Assembly: GCA_040235515.1 (NCBI GenBank)
Contig: JBECKX010000173.1
Span: 1-15,340, forward strand
From: Candidatus Zixiibacteriota bacterium
GTDB lineage: Bacteria > Zixibacteria > MSB-5A5 > CAIYYT01
Direction: 5' to 3'
DNA length: 15,340 nucleotides
Positions 1-11,954 of the stretch are shown piece by piece (position 1 is the first letter of the stretch; every line of letters starts with the position of its first letter). Under the pieces are notes generated by a model, which had not been told where the DNA came from, did no database searches, and saw only the letters and a program-made list of their open reading frames with translations. Made by a program: the position numbers and the translations under genes.

Positions 1-821
1 TCAGACTTACCGAGTAACTCGTGCGGGTCTTCATAGTAAGTGATGGCTTTCTGGATATCTCCTTCAAGTCCATGCACCGCCAGATTCATCTTGGCCAGGC
101 GGATGGTGGTCGCGTTTTTTTCCAGACCCCGGAAAGTGAGTTTCTCGACCGGGTTTTCATCACGCCGCTCCACGAACCTGGCGCTCTGTACAAACATCCC
201 ACCGGAGCCACAAGCTGGATCTAAAACAGTGCCGCCCTCCGGCTCAAGGACATTGGCAATAAGTGACACCAGCGAAACGGGGGTGAAGAACTCACCGTTA
301 TCGTGTGCCTTAAGATCGGCAAATTGAGTCAGGAAGTACTCATAGATGCGACCGAACACATCACCGGATGCTTTCTTTAGTTCTTCGGGATTTAGCGTAC
401 GAAGCAATTGCCCCAGGACGGCGTTGTCCAATTCCTGATACTCGTTCTTAGGCAGAACACCGCGAAGATTGTCATAATCGGACTCGATAGACTCCATCGC
501 TTCAATGATAGCTTTGGCGCGATCATCGCTATCGGTCAACGCCACGAGGTAGTCAAACTGCGCCTTCGGTCGAACGAAGATTGCGCTTTTCTGAGAGAAG
601 TCTTCCTTGATCAGCTCTCGAACCTTGCCTCCGCGTTTGGGCAGGCCGGGTTCGATTTGTTCCTTCACCACAAGGAACCGGCGATAGGCATGTCGAAGGA
701 AAATCAAGCCCATTACCGGAAGGAAATACTCATTACTCGCATAGTTGGAATTGGCCCGAAGAGTGTCGGCGGCATTCCAAAGTCGTTTCTCTATTGCTTC
801 AATATGCTCAAGGTGGGCCAT
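1..821 (-). CDS. hsdM: Type I restriction-modification system methyltransferase subunit M (5' part; runs off the left edge)
   Basis: Manual translation from ATG at 821 stays open to the window edge: MAHLEHIEAIEKRLWNAADTLRANS...DVFGRIYEYFL...GEFFTPVSLV...VLDPACGSGGMF...LAKMNLAVHG. The N-terminal LW.AAD.LR, GEFFTP and SAM-binding motif I (DPACGSG) are typical of HsdM. It is absent from the ORF track because its stop is outside the window. Confidence 0.95.
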   Translation of the reverse strand, partial: MAHLEHIEAIEKRLWNAADTLRANSNYASNEYFLPVMGLIFLRHAYRRFLVVKEQIEPGLPKRGGKVRELIKEDFSQKSAIFVRPKAQFDYLVALTDSDDRAKAIIEAMESIESDYDNLRGVLPKNEYQELDNAVLGQLLRTLNPEELKKASGDVFGRIYEYFLTQFADLKAHDNGEFFTPVSLVSLIANVLEPEGGTVLDPACGSGGMFVQSARFVERRDENPVEKLTFRGLEKNATTIRLAKMNLAVHGLEGDIQKAITYYEDPHELLGKS

Positions 822-822
822 A

Positions 823-1071
823 CTACCTGCTTCCCCCAAAATGCTTTTTCAGTAGTTGTTTGCCTTGATCCCCCAGGTCCTGAAGCAGGTCCTCAATCTG
901 TTTCAACGCCAAAGGCGATGGCTTTGAACGGCCGTTTTCCCAACGATTGATCGTGGGAAAAGAAACCCCCAGCTTCTGAGCAAGCTTCTCCTGCGTCAGC
1001 CCCAACGTTTGACGCAGCTGAAATATCAAATCAGCCGAATCGGTGTTGGGGCCATTACTTTGAGATTTCAA
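823..1071 (-). CDS. XRE/Cro-family helix-turn-helix regulator (controller-like), 82 aa
   Basis: LRQTLGLTQEKLAQKLGVSFPTINRWENGRSKP is an HTH_3 signature. TTG start with AGGAG upstream; the stop lies 1 nt before the hsdM ATG. Confidence 0.9.
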   Translation of the reverse strand: MKSQSNGPNTDSADLIFQLRQTLGLTQEKLAQKLGVSFPTINRWENGRSKPSPLALKQIEDLLQDLGDQGKQLLKKHFGGSR

Positions 1072-1115
1072 TATGTCTCTCCTGATTGGGGCCTCCGGGA
1101 TCGGTCATCACATGC

Positions 1116-1131
1116 TATAACAAACGTTATA
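1116..1131. promoter_or_regulatory. Palindromic operator candidate TATAAC-N4-GTTATA upstream of the XRE-hsdM unit
   Basis: Perfect 6-bp inverted repeat about 45 nt upstream of the XRE start. On the minus strand it overlaps a TG-n-TATAGC extended -10-like sequence, and TTGACA lies at 1142-1147 with non-canonical spacing. Confidence 0.5.
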
Positions 1132-1185
1132 AAACTCCTGTTGTCAAGGGTTTGTTGAAGAATGTGAGATTGGCCTGATTTGGGC

Positions 1186-1222
1186 AAAAAAACGAGGACT
1201 TAAGAACAAGTCTTAAGCCCTC
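1186..1222 (-). terminator. Rho-independent terminator of the annealase-exonuclease-DUF932 unit
   Basis: Minus strand GAGGGCTTAAGA-CTTGT-TCTTAAGTCCTC (12-bp stem with one G-U pair) followed by GTTTTTTT. Confidence 0.8.
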
Positions 1223-1311
1223 TTGGGGTGTGTTCCCATTCAACCTGTCGCATTTGATTGACAATTGAAGGAGAAACGGTGGCCTGAAATGGATTCCAGG
1301 CCGGGAAAGAA

Positions 1312-2373
1312 CTAATCGATGGATTTCAGTAGTGCCCCTGCTCGACGCTCGAGGTTTACCCGAACATCGGTGTGGGGCAGCTGACGAGCGTGGGCAGTAA
1401 GTCCCTGCACCATGCCCCAGAGTGTGGAGACGTCGTCACCTTCATTTCGACCAGTTCGCCATCCGGCGATGATCTCCAAACCGGTGAATGGCTTCTCCTT
1501 GAACCATTCAGTGACTTTGTCCAGATTGTCACCGACTTTCAGCCGTGTGGCTTCGTCGACTCCTCGGGTGATTGCCTCGGTAGCCATGCGATTCTCCACA
1601 AATCGGTTCAGAGCCGGTAAGGCGTCAGACCGAAAGCGGTCTATTGCCTTTGACCGATGGACAATCTTCAGTTCCTGGACCTGCTCGGCACCCCACACAA
1701 TGTGGTTGCCACAGACATAGTTATACAGGAATGTGGTAAGGCCGAATGTGCAAGCCCCCGTTTCCGAGTTCCAGCAGAAGAATCCACGGCCGAGCTTGGC
1801 ATTGCCGACCTCGATGGGATTCTCGTCGTTTACGAAGAACGCGAACATATCGCGATCAGAGGCATACAGGCCTGCGTTGTCGGACCCTCCGTTATTTCGG
1901 GCGGGCGGCACTCGCCAGCCCGTCCCTTCAACGGCGTCTTTCAAAGAAGCCACTACGTCTGCATCCCAGATACGTCCGTACTTCGGTCCAGTGAATGCCG
2001 ACACGACTCGGTCTCCGGTTCCGCTTCGAAACAACAGCTTTGCCTGAGTGTCTCGCTTGTCAAGGCTGTGCCTGAGACATTCAATTACTGTTTCTGGCGG
2101 CAACGTGCGAAGGTATTTCGCAGGTGCGCCAACGGCGGTGCAGAGTTGGTTGAAAGACCAATTGGTCAGAATGGCTGGTTCTTCGGAGCCGTTCAGGGCT
2201 ATGCCCGAATGACCGGTGACATCGAGATGGACCTCTGGAAGTCCGCGCACCTTTTCCTCGGATGCGTCCTTAAGACGCTGAGTAAAGATCTGCAGACTGT
2301 CCAGGTCGTGGAACCTCTCGTCAGGTGGTCGGATGCACCATTGACGATGAGCATCATATAGATTCGAAGACAT
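1312..2373 (-). CDS. DUF932-like phage/plasmid/ICE protein, about 353 aa
   Basis: Motifs W..RP.DERF, YGRIWDADVV, LYASDRDMF.F and RGFF.WNSETG...Y.YVCGNH..WG resemble DUF932-family proteins. Start moved from 2526 to ATG 2373 because GGAGG lies 5 nt upstream and the longer ORF overlaps the nuclease gene. Confidence 0.75.
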   Translation of the reverse strand: MSSNLYDAHRQWCIRPPDERFHDLDSLQIFTQRLKDASEEKVRGLPEVHLDVTGHSGIALNGSEEPAILTNWSFNQLCTAVGAPAKYLRTLPPETVIECLRHSLDKRDTQAKLLFRSGTGDRVVSAFTGPKYGRIWDADVVASLKDAVEGTGWRVPPARNNGGSDNAGLYASDRDMFAFFVNDENPIEVGNAKLGRGFFCWNSETGACTFGLTTFLYNYVCGNHIVWGAEQVQELKIVHRSKAIDRFRSDALPALNRFVENRMATEAITRGVDEATRLKVGDNLDKVTEWFKEKPFTGLEIIAGWRTGRNEGDDVSTLWGMVQGLTAHARQLPHTDVRVNLERRAGALLKSID

Positions 2374-2446
2374 CATTACCTCCATGTTTGAATTTCTGTT
2401 TGGGATTTCTGTTAGGAGAAAGGCGAGCCTGCAAATACTAGCCCGC

Positions 2447-3232
2447 TCATCCCCTCCAACGTCGGCAGGGTTCTGCGAATTCGCAGTTGCCGCATTGCCA
2501 CCCGTAGTTGGGGTGATAGTAGCCACTGCTTATTGATCTGCAGACCGACTTGGCAAGGTGAAAGAACCGGACCATGTCTGACTTGTCTCGGAGCACCTCG
2601 ACTGACTGTAGTCGTGGATTCTTAGTCTTGGTGACAACATCAATTCGCAGGTTCGGCTCGCGGTCATAGAGAATGCGATAGGCATACCCATAGGCCGTGA
2701 GTTGCAAGTGATTCAGGATCGTAAGATTGTCATAGGCTCGGGCCGCTGTCTTGGTCTCGACAACGGTGTCCTCGGCTTCGAGAAGATCGAAGTAGCCATC
2801 AAGTGGCAATCCCAGATCTTCACCGGTTTCGAGGTCGACAAGCGGCACACGAAACGGAACCTCCGTGTCGTTAACCGGCTTGCCTCGGTAGCCCCTGACA
2901 TAGGCGCTGGCGAGTTTTCCTCCGACTTGTACTACGTCTTCGAGTGACTCGCCATTTTTGAACCTCAACTTCTCCTCAGCCTGCGCGCGTAGGTCTGCTG
3001 TCAGAATCCTGGCAACATCCTCAGCACTCGGAGACGAACCGTTCTTCCTGCGTTTGTGCCACCATTCAACTGCGGCGTGAAATGCGGTGCCAAGCGCCAA
3101 TTCAATTGGCTTGAATGGGCGTGGCAGCTTGTCCACATACACGAAGCGGTATTTGAGCGGACACATCAGGTAGAGGTTGATCTGCGATACTGAGACATGA
3201 TCTGTTGGATGACCGTTCCGATTGGTATTCAA
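2447..3232 (-). CDS. PD-(D/E)XK nuclease, RecB/AddB/Cas4-like exonuclease with a predicted 4Fe-4S staple
   Basis: S.SQ...Y..CP..Y, GTAFH, E...G.FDL...VVETKT (D-E-x-K), QL..Y and C-terminal CxxCxxxxxC give four Cys. The TTG start overlaps the upstream TGA (TTGA), with GAGGAGG upstream. Confidence 0.88.
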   Translation of the reverse strand: MNTNRNGHPTDHVSVSQINLYLMCPLKYRFVYVDKLPRPFKPIELALGTAFHAAVEWWHKRRKNGSSPSAEDVARILTADLRAQAEEKLRFKNGESLEDVVQVGGKLASAYVRGYRGKPVNDTEVPFRVPLVDLETGEDLGLPLDGYFDLLEAEDTVVETKTAARAYDNLTILNHLQLTAYGYAYRILYDREPNLRIDVVTKTKNPRLQSVEVLRDKSDMVRFFHLAKSVCRSISSGYYHPNYGWQCGNCEFAEPCRRWRG

Positions 3233-3921
3233 AACGGCACCTCCTCGGCCGGCTTGGCTGCGTTGACCATCTCGTCGATCAGGATGCTCGCTTTGCCTTT
3301 GGTTATCTGTTCCAACGACTCGACACCAGCTTTCTCAAGCAGGTGTCGGTGAGCGTCGTCGCCTTCGATCTGCCGTTCGGCCAGGAGCCGGAATAAGTAC
3401 CGGCGCTGAGCATCGGTCATAGGAGAATCGGAGCTGCTTGATTGCTCTGACTCGGCCTGTGGCCTTGATCTACTCCTCACGCCGGGAATCCTGTTGTTCC
3501 CGTGATTGGGCTGCGGTTCAGTCGAACCGCCGCCATTGGTCGGTCGGCCATTTCCCTCCAGGGCCAACTCCTCGATCGACACGACACCGATGTTCACGGC
3601 GTCACGGAGTGCCCTCGCTTTCGCGCGGGTCTCTGCCATCCGGATGATGTGAGGGATAATCCTCGACGCGACATTATCCGGGCTTGCATCGCCGTGACCC
3701 TTGTAAATACCGCTCTCGGTTTCCACAATGGCCAAAAAGACGGCGGTGTGACCGTTCGCTTCCTCGGGAAGCTGCACCAGCGCGGTCTCGATCTTCTTGA
3801 GACCCTGGTCGTGAGCCAGGCTCAACAAGCCCGCATACGTGACAACATCCTCGGTCGCGATTACTCGGCCCTGACGATCCTTGATTTCAATCGTCTTCAC
3901 CAGACTGCCATTTCCAGACAT
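3229..3921 (-). CDS. Putative single-strand annealing protein (Rad52/Sak/Erf-like N-domain, low-complexity linker, small helical C-domain)
   Basis: V.YAGLL..AH, G.GDA and MAETRAKARALR.A..IG.....EE motifs resemble phage annealase cores. Strong AAGGAGGT RBS; translationally coupled to an exonuclease gene. Confidence 0.6.
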   Translation of the reverse strand: MSGNGSLVKTIEIKDRQGRVIATEDVVTYAGLLSLAHDQGLKKIETALVQLPEEANGHTAVFLAIVETESGIYKGHGDASPDNVASRIIPHIIRMAETRAKARALRDAVNIGVVSIEELALEGNGRPTNGGGSTEPQPNHGNNRIPGVRSRSRPQAESEQSSSSDSPMTDAQRRYLFRLLAERQIEGDDAHRHLLEKAGVESLEQITKGKASILIDEMVNAAKPAEEVPF

Positions 3922-3981
3922 ACTGACCTCCTTAGGTTTGGGGTGATTGTGAAAAGGACTGTTTTTGTGTGATCAGTCTGG

Positions 3982-4009
3982 ACCTTAGCAGGTCTGTATA
4001 GACCGTCAA
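3982..4009 (-). promoter_or_regulatory. Sigma70-like promoter for the annealase unit, overlapped by palindromes
   Basis: Minus strand TTGACG-N16-TAAGGT with an extended -10 TG. It is overlapped by GACCT-N4-AGGTC (3981-3994) and GGTCT-N4-AGACC (3991-4004). Confidence 0.55.
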
Positions 4010-4072
4010 TTGCCGGAGCCGGCAACAAACGAGCATCGACTAGAAGCAGAATCTCTGGTAAGGTGTCGCGAT

Positions 4073-5371
4073 ATGAAGGATCAGGGCGTTACCATTTTGG
4101 GCGAGACAAACTACCGAAATCAGCGGAAGCGGTTTGGGATCAAGGATCATGACCGACAACGGCATGTTTACGTCGTCGGACAGACCGGAATGGGCAAATC
4201 TACCCTCTTGCTAAACATGCTGGTTCAGGACGTACAGCGTGGTAAGGGTGTAGCCCTGATAGACCCGCATGGCGACTTGGCGGAGCAGCTGTTAGATCAT
4301 ATCCCCCAGAGACGAATGACCGATGTCATCTACATCAACCCGGCTGACACTGAATATCCGGTAGGGCTAAATCTGCTGGATGGCGATAGATCTGCCGGGC
4401 GCCATTTGATCGCCTCTCATCTGGTTGACATTTTCAAGAAGATCTGGTCTGATTCCTGGGGGCCACGACTGGAGTACATCCTCAGAAACACAATTCTCGC
4501 GCTCCTTGAGTGCGGTGGGCACACGCTGCTTTCGATTCCCAGATTGCTTATAGATCCCGAATTCAGGGCGGTTGTGTTGAGCCGAGTGCAAGACCCGGTT
4601 GTCCGCACCTTCTGGCAGGTGGAATACGAGCTGTACCCGAAGGTGTTCCGAACGGAGACAATATCCCCTATTCAGAACAAGGTTGGTCAGTTCTTATCGG
4701 TGCCAGTGATGCGGAATATCCTCGGACAAACCCAAAACAGGGTTGATTTCCGCTCGGTAATGGATTCTGGCAGGATTTTGATCGTAAACCTGGCCAAAGG
4801 GCGGCTCGGAGAAGACAACACAAGCCTTCTGGGATCACTCATCGTCTCCAAGCTGTTCCTGACAGCCATGTCGCGGTCAGATACACCGCAAAGCCAGCGA
4901 AAGTCATATACTGTGTATATTGACGAATTTCAAAGTTTCGCATCAGACAACTTCGCCCACACACTCTCTGAAATGCGCAAATTTGGCCTCCATTTGGTCT
5001 TGGCGCACCAATACCTAGCCCAACTACCTTTACAGCTCAAATCGGCTGTATTCGGCAATGTGGGCACAACTATAACATTTCGGATCGGGGCTGAAGACGG
5101 AGAATACTTAGAACGCGAATATTGGCCCACTTTCAGGGCCTCAGACCTGCAATCGCTATCCGCATATGATATCTACGTCAAGCTCTCAATTGACGGAAAA
5201 ACGACTGACGCCTTCAGCGCCCGGACATTGCCGGAACCGGTTTTATATGAAAACCACCGTGACGCCATTGTCCAGCTGACACGTATACGCTACGGAGATG
5301 AAAAGTCAGCCGTTGAACATCGAATAGAGACCTGGATGGCCGATCCAATTAGAGCCCTTTGTGAGGGATAG
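4073..5371 (+). CDS. VirD4/TraD/TrwB-like (FtsK-HerA superfamily) P-loop ATPase without an N-terminal membrane anchor, about 432 aa
   Basis: DRQRHVYVVGQTGMGKS (Walker A), IDPHGD, VYIDEFQ (Walker B), SEMRKFGLHLVLAHQYLAQL and GNVGT..FR. ATG 4073 (AAGGTG upstream) is preferred over TTG 4010. Confidence 0.88.
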   Translation: MKDQGVTILGETNYRNQRKRFGIKDHDRQRHVYVVGQTGMGKSTLLLNMLVQDVQRGKGVALIDPHGDLAEQLLDHIPQRRMTDVIYINPADTEYPVGLNLLDGDRSAGRHLIASHLVDIFKKIWSDSWGPRLEYILRNTILALLECGGHTLLSIPRLLIDPEFRAVVLSRVQDPVVRTFWQVEYELYPKVFRTETISPIQNKVGQFLSVPVMRNILGQTQNRVDFRSVMDSGRILIVNLAKGRLGEDNTSLLGSLIVSKLFLTAMSRSDTPQSQRKSYTVYIDEFQSFASDNFAHTLSEMRKFGLHLVLAHQYLAQLPLQLKSAVFGNVGTTITFRIGAEDGEYLEREYWPTFRASDLQSLSAYDIYVKLSIDGKTTDAFSARTLPEPVLYENHRDAIVQLTRIRYGDEKSAVEHRIETWMADPIRALCEG

Positions 5372-5528
5372 ATATAGTACTAAGTCTGGGATGAAATTGC
5401 GAACGATGAAGATCAATGTGAGGCGTTTCTTTGGCTAACACAAGCCTCATAACTCATTGTCCCTGAATAGGCAAATGGCTCCTGGACTGGCTCTCTCTAA
5501 AAGGCTATGCGGGATACCACTCTGCTCG

Positions 5529-5556
5529 GAGCGATGTTTGACTGAGAACATTGCTC
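5529..5556. terminator. Stem-loop between the convergent ATPase and DUF5677-like genes
   Basis: GAGCGATGTT-N8-AACATTGCTC, a 10-bp stem with one G-U pair on the + strand. There is no U-tract, so a terminator role is uncertain. Confidence 0.3.
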
Positions 5557-5572
5557 ATGTAACAATCTCAGC

Positions 5573-6352
5573 TCATATTGGCCAGCAATCTCGTACGTCC
5601 TTATCAGTCCAAGAGTTAAATTCCTTTCCAAATAGCCTCATTAGGCAGTCGAGAAATATGTCCGCATATCGGAATACACCGCCGACATCCTGAGGTAGTG
5701 ATTTTGCAGTCCATAGCATGCCATCAGCATGCACCCGGAGAAAGCGATCGGCAAGTCGAACATCTGCATGAGTAAACGATGAGAGGTCTGCATAAAATAC
5801 GTCATAGGGCTCTTCGTGATCGACTTCAACCGCCATTTCTCGAATCGACTTTCCAGACCAATTGCGATGACCGGAACCGAAAAAAGTTGATTTTGCAGAT
5901 TCAAACTTCGATTCAATCTCTACTTCTCTCGGTTCCCATTCGTGCTTCCAAGCTGTGTTCATTGCCTCGCGCCAGTCGGCTTTTCTTGATTCGCGGTGCT
6001 TACCCCAAGCGTCCATTTGCTTCTTCTTGAGTATTGATTCAAACCTAATGTAACGATTAGCTCGATTGACACGATCTTGAGTAATGTAGTGGCTCGTTAC
6101 ATCAATCTCGAACATGGGGCGGACGATTGTATATCCCACAGTCGTGGGGAACCAATCTTCACCGAAAGCTTTATATAAAGCCTCCAGGCTTCTGGCTGCT
6201 GTCATGCTATGAATTAAGAAGCAAGCCATGAGAGAATGATATTCAGGGCCTGCGGGGTGGATTTCCTTTATGGAGGAAGCTGTTTCCGCCAGCTTAAGCA
6301 ATCGTGAAAGAATCTCCCTGTGTTGCTGATTTGTCAATCCTGGTATTGCCAT
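5573..6352 (-). CDS. DUF5677-like all-helical protein (possible HEPN-related fold), about 259 aa
   Basis: R.MFE.....YI, W.GKSIREMA and Y...Y..LS.FTH patterns. ATG 6352 has GGAG 6 nt upstream (the ORF track uses TTG 6364). Visibly more AT-rich than the host genes. Confidence 0.6.
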   Translation of the reverse strand: MAIPGLTNQQHREILSRLLKLAETASSIKEIHPAGPEYHSLMACFLIHSMTAARSLEALYKAFGEDWFPTTVGYTIVRPMFEIDVTSHYITQDRVNRANRYIRFESILKKKQMDAWGKHRESRKADWREAMNTAWKHEWEPREVEIESKFESAKSTFFGSGHRNWSGKSIREMAVEVDHEEPYDVFYADLSSFTHADVRLADRFLRVHADGMLWTAKSLPQDVGGVFRYADIFLDCLMRLFGKEFNSWTDKDVRDCWPI

Positions 6353-6465
6353 AACTATCTCCAATACCTAATTAGCCTTTTAACCTTAGCAATGTAAAAT
6401 AACTGGCTTTCAGGTGTCCGACAAGCTATATTTATAACTGAACACTCGAATCAAGGATGATGCCT

Positions 6466-6639
6466 ATGCCGAGAGAAAAAACGACCCATACGAAGCCGAA
6501 GATGATTCACATTCGACTGAGTGAGGAGCTTCACCAACAACTGCGAATACAGGTGGCCAAAGAGAATCAGACCATTCAGGACTGGGTGGAACAGCTAATC
6601 GATAAGAATGTCAAACCGGGGCGAGGGAAGCAGTCTTGA
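6466..6639 (+). CDS. Ribbon-helix-helix (CopG/Arc/ParG-like) DNA-binding protein
   Basis: KMIHIRLSEELHQQLRIQVAKENQTIQDWVEQLID is an alternating beta strand followed by two helices. AAGGA lies 8 nt before ATG 6466 (alternative ATGs at 6457 and 6460). Confidence 0.75.
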   Translation: MPREKTTHTKPKMIHIRLSEELHQQLRIQVAKENQTIQDWVEQLIDKNVKPGRGKQS

Positions 6640-8219
6640 GTCCAGTCAATGGTGAAAAGAAACGTTGCTACGTTTATGCGAGGCTATCCACGGAGGACCA
6701 GCACCGTCGCGTCGAATACTCGTCGCTTGAGAGTCAGGAAAAGGTTTGCAAAGCTTACATCGCCAGCCAGGAGCCGAACGGCTGGAAGTATGTGACGACA
6801 ATCAAAGACCTCAGCTCTGGGGGCAGCACCGACCGGCCTGGATTGAGCGAGCTACTCGAACATATCAAGCAGAACAAAGTTGATGTGGTCGTTACGACCA
6901 AGATGGATCGGCTGACCAGGAATATCAAAGATTTCTGGACACTCTACGAAATCATGCAGGAGCATGATTGCCAGTTCGTCTGCGCCACACAGGAACTCAA
7001 CTCCACGACCGCTCACGGCCGTTTCTTCATCAATATCCTCATGAGTTTCGCAGAATTCGAACTTGAGACCATCAGGGAAAGAACCCGCGCCAAGATGTTG
7101 TCGCAGGCCGAAGAGGGTCTCTGGCACGGTGGACGGGCTCCTTTCGGCTACGAACGCCATAAGGATAGGAAGGGTCTGCTGATTCCACACAAGACAGAAG
7201 CTGCGGTTGTGAAGAAGATCTTCGATCTGTTCGTCAAGTTGGGATCACCGGCAGCCGTAGCCAAAGAAATCAATGGCATGGGATATCGGACCAAGAGTAA
7301 GAAAAAAACCAAATTCTCCAAGTGGACGATCACTTACATTCTGTCTAATCCGCTTTATATTGGGAAGACGACCTTTGGGGGTCAGAGCTTTGAAGGCAAA
7401 CACAAAGCGCTTGTCCCGGTCATTCGGTTCAACCACGTGCAAAAGATGCTGGAAAAGAACAAACAGACGCGGACAGGTCCCACCCAGAACAAATACAATT
7501 TCCGGCTGAGGGGCATCCTCAAGTGCGGCGATTGTGGTTCGATGATGACACCGAGTCCTGCCAAGAGTGGACGCTACCTTTACTACCGTTGTACCCGTGT
7601 GTCAAAGTATTCGAAGGAAGAGTGCAAAGTCAGGAAGATTGGTGCTCGGGCGATTGAGGATGCGGTCGTTAACAAGCTGTGTGAGATCGGAACTGACGAA
7701 GCCGTCATCAAAGAAGCGGTTCGCAAGGCTAACAAGGATTCAGTGACCAATGCCAAGACCAAGACCAAAGAGCTGAATGCCCTGAAAAAGGAACTGAAGC
7801 CGGTTCAAGACTCAATTGACAACATGATCCGATACGTGGAGAAGCATGGGGACCTACCGAAAGCTATGTCTGACCGTCTCCCGGAACTGGAAACCCGAAA
7901 AGAACAACTGGAAACCCAGATTCAGCGTCTGGAATTCGAGATTGGACAACTCAAGGACTACCAAATCGACACTGAATTGCTTACGAAGACGCTGCAGGAC
8001 TTCCGGGCGATCTACAATGAACTGACTCCAGAGGAGCAGACTCGCCTGTTACAGCTTATGGTTCAAGAAGTTATCTTGGGTGAAGATACGCTGAAGATTT
8101 CTGTTTTTCCGCTTGGGGATTCTGAGAAGCCTCTGGAATACCTGCTGAAACATCCAGAGTTTGCTGAGAGTGATAAAAAGCGGGGTCGACGAGACTCGAA
8201 CTCGCGACCTCCTGCGTGA
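6636..8219 (+). CDS. Large serine recombinase (integrase), 527 aa
   Basis: YARLST catalytic Ser, SG...DRPGL, DRLTR, FAEFE...I.ER, G.W.GG..PFGY, IL.NP.YIG, zinc ribbon CGDCG...YYRC...C and a coiled coil. The TTG start overlaps the RHH stop. Confidence 0.95.
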   Translation: MSPVNGEKKRCYVYARLSTEDQHRRVEYSSLESQEKVCKAYIASQEPNGWKYVTTIKDLSSGGSTDRPGLSELLEHIKQNKVDVVVTTKMDRLTRNIKDFWTLYEIMQEHDCQFVCATQELNSTTAHGRFFINILMSFAEFELETIRERTRAKMLSQAEEGLWHGGRAPFGYERHKDRKGLLIPHKTEAAVVKKIFDLFVKLGSPAAVAKEINGMGYRTKSKKKTKFSKWTITYILSNPLYIGKTTFGGQSFEGKHKALVPVIRFNHVQKMLEKNKQTRTGPTQNKYNFRLRGILKCGDCGSMMTPSPAKSGRYLYYRCTRVSKYSKEECKVRKIGARAIEDAVVNKLCEIGTDEAVIKEAVRKANKDSVTNAKTKTKELNALKKELKPVQDSIDNMIRYVEKHGDLPKAMSDRLPELETRKEQLETQIQRLEFEIGQLKDYQIDTELLTKTLQDFRAIYNELTPEEQTRLLQLMVQEVILGEDTLKISVFPLGDSEKPLEYLLKHPEFAESDKKRGRRDSNSRPPA

Positions 8220-8254
8220 CAGGCAGGCATTCTAACCAACTGAACTACGACCCC
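8181..8254 (-). tRNA. tRNA-Asp (GTC), CCA not encoded
   Basis: GGGGTCG/CGACCCC acceptor stem, D-arm GTTC-AGTTGGTTA-GAAT, anticodon arm CCTGC-CTGTCAC-GCAGG, T-loop TTCGAGT, discriminator G. Confidence 0.97.
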
Positions 8255-8312
8255 GGCTATTCTTCGCAATGTAATCCGCTGCAGCACTCGAAAGCGTGAG
8301 CAACGGCAGGGG

Positions 8313-8340
8313 AATATATATCATTCCCGCGATTTGTCAA
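8313..8340 (-). promoter_or_regulatory. Sigma70 promoter of tRNA-Asp
   Basis: Minus strand TTGACA-N16-TATATT; a GGGAAT-N7-ATTCCC inverted repeat (8310-8328) overlaps the -10. Confidence 0.7.
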
Positions 8341-8406
8341 TCGTGACTTTTCGCTCTCAGCGGCGATTCTGATTCGAGTCCCCGACAGATCTTAACTCGA
8401 TAAAAA

Positions 8407-8480
8407 TGGGCGGTACTGGATTCGAACCAGTGACCCCCTGCGTGTAAAGCAGGTGCTCTAACCAACTGAGCTAACCACCC
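8407..8480 (-). tRNA. tRNA-Val (TAC), CCA not encoded
   Basis: GGGTGGT/ACCGCCC acceptor stem, anticodon arm CCTGC-TTTACAC-GCAGG, T-loop TTCGAAT, discriminator A. Confidence 0.97.
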
Positions 8481-8561
8481 AATCGTGAATCATCAGCCCT
8501 CTAAAACAGCAGTCCCAGCAGTGACCGCTCTGCAGCCCAATGCTGGGAATCTGTTTCAGAC

Positions 8562-8590
8562 GATATATAGTACGCGTTGCCACATGTCAA
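8562..8590 (-). promoter_or_regulatory. Sigma70 promoter of tRNA-Val
   Basis: Minus strand TTGACA-N17-TATATC, about 80 nt upstream of the tRNA. Confidence 0.6.
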
Positions 8591-8638
8591 GAGCGCTCGC
8601 GCACAAATTTGTCGATCAAGTACTTGTCAGCGAATCAA

Positions 8639-11171: not shown

Positions 11172-11954
11172 CTACTCGACACGGGGAAACGGCTGAGTGA
11201 CGGCCTCGCGGGGACCTGTATGAATCGCGTCGGCAAACTCGGTGAAAAGTGGCAGATGGTTCTGTTCCTCAAAGCGGTTCCCCACTACCACAAAGCTGGC
11301 GCCGGCTTCAACTTTGGCGCGCGCTTCCTCCGGCTGCCTGATACCCCCTCCGCAGATGATCGGGAGCGGCACATACGCCGCCGTCGCTGAGATAATCTTC
11401 TCCGGGACTGAGTGTATCGCACCCGAACCGGCTTCGAGATACACCATCTTCATCCCCAGGTACTGGGCTGCCAGGGCATGAGCCTTGACTATATCGGGCT
11501 TGTGCCGGGGGATCGGATGAGTATGCGACAGATATTCAACTGAAGTACGAGCACCGGATTCGATCAGCATATACGCGGTCGGGATGGCTTCCAGCCCATA
11601 CTGTCGCACCAGCGGAGCACCCTTTACCTGTTCACCGATCAGGTACTCCGGATTGCGCCCTGAGAGCAGCGAAGTAAACAATATTGCATCCGCACCGCGA
11701 CACACCTGGCCCGATCCACCGGGGAAGATGATAATCGGCAGGGTCACACGCTGCTTGATCTCGCGGATGATCGCCTCCATCAGGTCGGAGAAGATCAGCG
11801 AGCCGCCGATCAACAATGCATCAGCCCCCCCCTGCTCCGCCTGCTCAGCGCACTCGACCAGGTTGGCTTTGCCATGCTCACCCGGGTCAAGCAGTGTCAG
11901 GAATCCCGCGCCCTTCCGGCGCGCGGACTCCATTAGCTTGTCAAAGATTGACAT
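11172..11954 (-). CDS. Geranylgeranylglyceryl/heptaprenylglyceryl phosphate synthase (PcrB family, group II-like)
   Basis: LLDP, GGS, IIFPG, SLLSGRNPEYLIGEQ, YLEAGSGA and GGGIR...GA..VVVGN. Confidence 0.92.
   Translation of the reverse strand: MSIFDKLMESARRKGAGFLTLLDPGEHGKANLVECAEQAEQGGADALLIGGSLIFSDLMEAIIREIKQRVTLPIIIFPGGSGQVCRGADAILFTSLLSGRNPEYLIGEQVKGAPLVRQYGLEAIPTAYMLIESGARTSVEYLSHTHPIPRHKPDIVKAHALAAQYLGMKMVYLEAGSGAIHSVPEKIISATAAYVPLPIICGGGIRQPEEARAKVEAGASFVVVGNRFEEQNHLPLFTEFADAIHTGPREAVTQPFPRVE

Follow-up and report, generated by a model that had tools for sequence, protein, structure and literature searches.

Here, we describe a large serine integrase gene of a Candidatus Zixiibacteriota bacterium that runs, without a stop codon of its own, into the host tRNA-Asp gene, and we find that the integrated and excised states of its island very probably encode different C-termini. 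The window analysed is 15,340 nucleotides long and represents the entire contig C35 of a 218-contig assembly. On strong grounds, we infer that recombination takes place at the dinucleotide GG at positions 8182-8183, which lies within the last codons of the integrase gene and at the 3′ tip of tRNA-Asp.

In its integrated-state form, the integrase gene occupies positions 6636-8219 of the forward strand as an open reading frame (ORF) of 527 aa with a TTG start, of which the island encodes the residues through Arg516. The protein ends ...ESDKKRGRRDSNSRPPA* with no stop earlier in frame, and its C-terminal residues RGRRDSNSRPPA are closed by the TGA at 8217-8219. Pfam comparison identified a Resolvase domain at residues 12-161 (PF00239, E 8.6e-37) with a nearly invariant Y-x-R-x-S catalytic-serine motif, followed by Recombinase (187-275, PF07508) and zinc-ribbon (291-348, PF13408) domains with four conserved Cys residues. 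All Pfam domains are therefore contained within residues 12-348, and the crossover falls at residue 516. The predicted model of an 84%-identical relative (P0123) displayed long helices at 354-403 and 408-439, in keeping with a coiled coil inserted in the zinc-ribbon domain, with serine integrase complexes as its best fold matches, while a score of 188.8 bits for CcrB against a cut-off of 900, and lower scores for CcrA and CcrC, place the protein outside the SCCmec Ccr family. The tRNA-Asp(GTC) gene, located by ARAGORN at 8180-8254 on the reverse strand, is the sole tRNA-Asp of the assembly, and its final bases (8180-8181) derive from the island side. Integrase codons fill positions 8181-8219 (39 nt) inside it, base 8180 being one further overlapping nucleotide, and the TGA is antisense to the final two anticodon bases and the following A. 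An earlier note on this DNA had described a recombinase ORF with no stop before the tRNA, reading through 39 nt of it (8181-8219) to a TGA antisense to part of the anticodon loop, a description with which the ORF and ARAGORN coordinates agree.

Twelve open codons are at chance level, as 69% of the 12-codon windows in the contig lack a stop; what needs explaining is an integrase gene without a stop of its own. Among 47 distinct tRNA-Asp junction contexts, 15 displayed a recombinase ORF of at least 300 aa in the same frame, none of which stopped before the tRNA, and this recurrence of stop-less integrases at tRNA-Asp exceeds chance. Eleven of the 15 integrases, including that of the window, are window-type (clade 1), and the other four belong to clade 2 (~27% identical). 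By hand count, 16 of the best 30 recombinase loci in the phylum have a reading frame that enters a tRNA gene; of 93 clade-2 relatives, most have RG or a tRNA-like peptide at the C-terminus.

The host-derived filler that completes the integrated gene (8184-8219, forward strand) is antisense tRNA read as G-RRDSNSRPPA-stop. Its length is set by the forward-strand base 8187, which pairs with tRNA base 6 and is C in the window (CGA, read-through) and T in most relatives (TGA). Eleven of the 15 tRNA-Asp integrases use the TGA equivalent to window 8187-8189 and carry just G-stop, while the remaining four have CGA and continue to the anticodon loop. The 6-67 pair is kept in all 20 distinct tRNA-Asp sequences (T-A in 12, C-G in eight), so that base 8187 belongs to the host tRNA and the filler is one or 11 residues long by chance; the crossover must, in turn, lie to the left of 8187. 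Judged from this comparison, the anticodon-loop stop is a host accident, and the stop used follows one acceptor-stem base pair. No meaning of the RRDSNSRPPA peptide, or of a stop within the anticodon loop, is supported, as both hinge on one host base. A hand count of the C-termini of 42 close homologues gave 28 of the form ESD..RG, four with the window's longer peptide, four with LRD.F.NW...AA, one with another tail, and five fragments or unrelated sequences.

Placement of the crossover relies on the block GCGG (8180-8183), the sole block common to the tRNA junctions and to both classes of distal arm, PQYH and LRD. The putative crossover GG is antisense to the final two acceptor-stem bases, and the P arm and distal arm are symmetric about it. 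The P arm of the junction (8152-8181, with an 18-bp core at 8158-8175) lies in the last ten island-encoded codons and, read outward, matches the consensus of the PQYH-class arm at 19 of 30 positions and at 16 of 18 core positions, exactly in register. The 16/18 core match is unique among the 7.18 million positions of this genome, while 57 hits attain the looser 19/30 score taken by itself; the ends of clade-2 integrases match the PQYH consensus at only 4-7 of 30 positions. In the attP and attB sites of serine integrases, an outer motif is described as offset by 5 bp, nearer the centre in attB (PMC3783163, PMC11722253, in the text available). The motif AACT displays the same 5-bp offset between our putative att sites, as it occupies positions +21 to +24 of both P arms but +16 to +19 of the tRNA arm, in agreement with the rule as given in PMC3783163. 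Short symmetric arms around a 2-bp GG likewise fit the att sites of large serine integrases, as far as sequence can tell. We also considered the anticodon loop and the T arm as crossover sites and rejected both: the genome holds no other tRNA 3′ fragment, and the distal arms diverge directly after GCGG. The comparison with relatives thus supports the proposal of the earlier note that the attachment site lies in the 3′ end of the integrase gene, with C-termini that differ between the two states; an attP carrying the tRNA segment through 8219, which that note had set against its own proposal, was not found, the sharing ending at GCGG. As a separate observation, loci L352 (G046:C1:159160), L350, and L366 hold window-type P arms with just eight open codons upstream and represent right ends from which the integrase has been lost while the arm was retained.

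The far end of the island in this genome was found by none of the peptide, profile, pattern, or flank homology searches, nor was it located by comparison with the same-genus genome G025. Since the distal end is missing from the assembly, the window's own tail had to be reconstructed from relatives. Of the 285 genomes of the class, 81 contain the PQYH-class arm pattern, and none contains its reversed-pattern control. In all three genomes with both ends on one contig, a PQYH arm is the nearest junction past the window-type integrase, at 74 kb in G141, 78 kb in G142 (where a further recombinase gene lies between integrase and arm), and 46 kb in G193. In regions chosen near hits, the PQYH arm is co-oriented and on the island side in 15 of the 16 that also hold the tRNA arm. 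The PQYH tail is, in our judgement, very probably the cognate tail of the window integrase. As for the joined attP itself, none of 23 P-arm pattern hits continues into a PQYH arm, and the 42 close homologue sequences include no PQYH tail and four LRD tails. Three full-length proteins with a PQYH tail were found, all clade-2-type integrases, which we interpret as non-cognate tandem junctions. Window-type integrases with an LRD tail and clade-2 integrases with a PQYH tail would both fit the tandem insertion of unlike elements, and loss by recombination would be expected of a cognate junction next to the tRNA; there are also clade-2 relics with an LRD arm behind them, which fit this view less well. 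Contigs of four public runs spanning positions 6400-8600 contained no joint, and no loose end at 8183 among those listed, and contigs drop rare forms; viral contigs contained neither a relative nor an arm. Some PQYH arms (L159, L327, L338, L339, L341) also possess an inverted copy ~50 bases upstream, outside the attP register.

When the window gene was joined at GG to arms taken from four relatives, the predicted protein was 548 aa long every time. The consensus of the tail after Arg516, aligned from 30 in-register sites, is PQYHSPQTFVxFxFxVxxxYxxxxGxRWKxIx (32 residues). For further statistics, 95 PQYH sites were picked on their first 26 bases only; these are not clones (no two are >90% identical, and the median identity is 0.51), and as kin share history, their counts are not independent events. 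Codons 10-30 are open in 80 of the 95 sites, compared with 50% of control windows, Trp28 is present in 72, the first stop falls at codon 33 in 42, and all three stop codons are in use. At the in-register sites, the hydrophobic fraction is 0.89-0.99 at positions 10, 12, 14, 16, and 20 and 0.08-0.22 at positions 11, 13, 15, 17, and 19. The pS/pN values are 0.69/0.51 in frame, 0.53/0.56 and 0.57/0.55 in the shifted frames, and approximately equal beyond the stop (61 sites), with the in-frame pN/pS of ~0.7 corresponding to modest selection. By these measures, the PQYH tail is an orphan on which selection acts at the codon level; it has a beta-strand pattern and lacks an ssrA-like end (an Ala-Ala end in 0 of 95 sites). 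The comparison shows its first nine codons to double as the DNA arm and the remainder to be selected as protein. No convincing Pfam match to the tail was obtained (best E 0.045), and it matched neither PDB sequences nor plasmids. Structure models of both the PQYH and LRD tails were of low confidence, and the predicted tail fold on a non-cognate integrase displayed a hairpin at the tail end with a pLDDT of 40-60.

Of the 285 genomes of the class, 85 contain the LRD tail pattern and three its control; the pattern is typically oriented like the integrase and situated on the side of tRNA-Asp that faces the island. A set of 131 distinct sites was selected solely by the 24 bases that end with the Trp codon; 110 of these have an in-frame stop 5-7 codons further on, 96 end in Ala, and 73 in Ala-Ala. 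The Ala-Ala ends use all four Ala codons and all three stops; the other frames yielded zero and two such ends, and control windows 8 of 7860. With a pS/pN of 0.77/0.41, the LRD tail is, on its codon usage, a protein-selected orphan with an ssrA-like end, the E. coli ssrA tag being described as ending in Ala-Ala (PMC10638403, available text). A hand count of the 150 LRD sites listed gave 131 with a Leu codon after the core, eight with a tRNA-like TG making a stop, and 11 others. The form LRDxFxNWVxxx(x)AA-stop (e.g. L060:1508, L139:16042) is probably the excised-state tail of clade-2 integrases and resembles a ClpXP degron. In G094, G045, G121, and G106, the arm closest to clade-2 integrases is of the LRD class; a PQYH arm is nearest to one divergent clade-2 gene in G141 and to one relic in G195, which makes the pairing of LRD arms with clade 2 less sure. 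A search of cluster representatives with the LRD tail profile returned eight short ORFs and no integrase.

Apart from these two classes, two more junction classes were observed after the GCGG core at tRNA-Asp, namely the YEFRNF class (L350, L136, L132) and the TATTCAATACC class (L002, L006), so that the site bears at least four tail classes. Distal arms encoding related tails of 21-23 residues, which end KRRIA and KRRCA and make up a third class of tail, were seen at tRNA-Thr (G009:C4, a 14.3 kb island) and tRNA-Met (G016:C7, 31.7 kb), two cases only, while five of seven islands at other tRNAs gave no clear distal arm within the DNA examined. Stacks of 2-9 co-oriented arms of two classes lie behind tRNA-Asp in G168:C4 (32120-75898), G094:C9 (128954-174512), and G042:C1 (631802-669499). 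Similar stacks are found in G055:C25, G050:C5, G183:C6, and others, with arms mostly 0.3-15 kb apart and integrase-less units between them. An integrase relic lies upstream of just six of 131 LRD arms, and an in-register P arm upstream of none of either class.

The tRNA-proximal part of the island (1-8183), which runs off the contig start, encodes HsdM, HTH, DUF932, PD-(D/E)XK nuclease, VirD4-like ATPase, DUF5677, and RHH proteins in addition to the integrase. The stop of a 60-aa ribbon-helix-helix-like gene (6457-6639, forward strand) overlaps the integrase start; with 26.5 bits for RHH_10 (cut-off 27) and 23.8 bits for HicB, it is a candidate regulator or directionality factor. A sigma-70-like promoter match (11/12, 8313-8340, reverse strand), by consensus only, is aimed at tRNA-Asp and hence convergent with the integrase gene. 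The module at window 826-5371 (HTH, DUF932, PD-(D/E)XK nuclease, DUF3072-like, VirD4-like) recurs at 85-90% identity in G141 and G193, and island modules 86-90% identical to those of the window lie beside tRNA-Asp in relatives. Another contig of this genome, G000:C79, is ~70% identical to cargo in the G141 (C4, 156-198 kb) and G142 islands and may be another island piece; C79-like cargo contains, by eye, metal-efflux and two-component genes. At L104 (G025:C19), L103 (G010), L107 (G031), and L106, tRNA-Asp 3′ relics adjoin the intact gene and are broken up by short palindromic inserts of the form CCCGAC...GTCGGG. On the host side, the window includes at 11172-11954 what we take to be a PcrB-family (geranylgeranylglyceryl phosphate synthase-like) gene, adjoining a presumed phosphoheptose isomerase-like SIS gene and an alanyl-tRNA synthetase-like ORF.

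As the comparison shows, integration restores the tRNA end with island DNA, and the integrated enzyme runs to Arg516 followed by a meaningless filler of one or 11 residues read from antisense tRNA. Excision would rejoin Arg516 to the distal arm and, to judge from relatives, yield the 32-residue tail and a protein of 548 aa. Most probably, the tail would act as a small module of beta structure which, docked on the integrase, renders the enzyme made from the free circle more integration-competent, and the tail-less chromosomal form, retaining all catalytic and DNA-binding domains, would serve rare excision by analogy with the myxophage Mx8. As the chromosomal form has every known domain and excision has no other form to draw on, catalysis is unlikely to depend on the tail, and docking that favours integration is preferred because the longer Mx8 form has been reported as more active (PMC4701971, text available). 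That the tail alters enzyme behaviour appears probable. By analogy, we lean toward docking rather than proteolysis as its mode of action, and we hold the explanation as a whole, namely a GG crossover, a swapped C-terminus, and a docking tail that favours integration, with moderate confidence.

As the main alternative, the excised-state tail might be a protease or unfoldase handle, by which ClpX(P) would strip the circle-made enzyme from the product site in the host tRNA-Asp, or destroy it, leaving the chromosomal form stable. Both clpP and clpX are present in the host, whose tmRNA tag ends in AIAA; of its 1381 long ORFs, only four end in AA, compared with 13.3 expected. The Ala-Ala-stop and Ala-stop ends of the sister LRD class and the KRRxA ends at tRNA-Thr and tRNA-Met (two of the seven islands examined) point the same way, as does RWKxI of the PQYH tail, which agrees with four of five positions of ClpX C motif-2 as given in the accessible part of PMC3983244; this likeness is, however, loose, the fourth position not being Lys. 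None of the PQYH tails ends in AA, and their 20-residue alternating hydrophobic pattern exceeds the need of a short degron, so we regard a handle as rather doubtful. The integration-dependent stability switch suggested earlier is thus not borne out for the likely cognate tail, whereas the sister LRD class does have such an end. That the tail is without effect on the integrase, the arrangement being an ordinary overlap, seems unlikely. In its favour, every recognised domain ends before the crossover, an integrated filler of either length is tolerated, the layout is common in the phylum, and several tail classes share one site, but codon-level selection acts on residues 10-32, past the DNA arm, which are coding only when excised. 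Our initial reading, in which the window integrase pairs with the LRDxFxNW...AA arm to give a 531-aa excised form with an ssrA-like degron, is highly improbable and was dropped for the nearer, symmetric PQYH class: the LRD tail occurs on four of 42 close homologues and at one genomic junction (G162), and its arm has ACGAGAC in common with the tRNA arm, but it matches the P arm at only 9 of 30 positions without symmetry, lies farther away than the PQYH arm in three of three contigs, and is nearest to clade-2 integrases in four genomes, with PQYH nearest in two other clade-2 cases.

The layout has partial counterparts in known systems, described here from the available portions of the cited reports. 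In Mx8 (IntP/IntX), attP lies inside the integrase gene and the integrated form gains a 13-residue tail and is reported to be less active (PMC4701971). The window layout likewise places the putative attP in the integrase gene, with a C-terminus replaced on integration by a short tail, the excised form being reconstructed from relatives; unlike the Mx8 tyrosine integrase, which loses 112 residues (PMC4701971), the window integrase is of the serine family and, by sequence, would lose 32 residues beyond the known domains. DsiB of Dehalococcoides is a large serine recombinase whose 3′ end always overlaps att and whose stop comes from an antisense RNA gene or the adjacent island, and its authors proposed that it is perhaps fully functional only on the circle (PMC3146451). 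By description, it resembles the window integrase in its family, att overlap, borrowed stop, and tandem arrays, but its target is the tmRNA, a second small recombinase (DsiA) is present, and, as far as described, its excised-state tail was neither defined nor tested for selection (PMC3146451). The rumA-targeting streptococcal ICE serine integrases also have an att site inside the integrase gene, but target a protein gene with reciprocal 3′-end exchange (PMC4701971), rather than a tRNA tip read antisense as here. In mycobacteriophage BPs, integration removes an ssrA-like C-terminal tail from a repressor encoded across attP (PMC4557955), similar to the free-state tail lost on integration here and resembling the LRD-class tail in its ssrA-like tag; the switched gene is, however, a repressor, whereas our site lies in the integrase gene and the likely cognate tail has no Ala-Ala end, which is confined to the LRD class. 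In the archaeal SSV-type 'suicidal' integrases, the recombination site is also within the integrase gene, but these are tyrosine-family enzymes that end up as two inactive pieces, the catalytic domain being severed from the rest (PMC8371274), while >94% of the window protein, including all Pfam domains, stays in one piece. In the literature searched, insofar as its text was available, no serine integrase that targets a tRNA was described as having a selected tail encoded by attP, although such a description is possible in the Mx8 originals, Mageeney et al. 2020, or supplements; the accessible parts of PMC12884075, PMC13626063, PMC4383910, and PMC5357655 contain nothing on tails.

Att sites inside integrase genes (Mx8, rumA ICEs, dsiB, SSV) and integration-driven tail removal (BPs repressor) are thus already known, going by the portions of those reports available. 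What is added here is the putative crossover, the likely cognate arm, two distinct selected tails at one site, and defined isoforms of 517, 527, and 548 aa; with three isoforms and a defined att pair, the open DsiB suggestion becomes testable. For integrase mining in genome engineering, chromosomal sequences of this kind would lack the tail or carry, in its place, tRNA filler or the tail of a neighbour. Were the tail to have no effect, the arrangement would be an ordinary overlap, common among tRNA-targeting serine integrases. Tentatively, tRNA-tip serine integrases might bear a state-encoded control module, in which a circle-only DNA arm writes a selected peptide onto the enzyme. Different clades at one tRNA would have arrived at different peptides (here a beta-hairpin, in the sister clade a helix with an Ala-Ala end, and KRRxA at other tRNAs), and the tail would set direction or lifetime with or without a separate directionality factor. 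If so, chromosome-annotated integrases of this kind would be systematically the wrong isoform for integration. Should the tail matter, recombination would rewrite the recombinase itself, providing a simple memory of the integration state.
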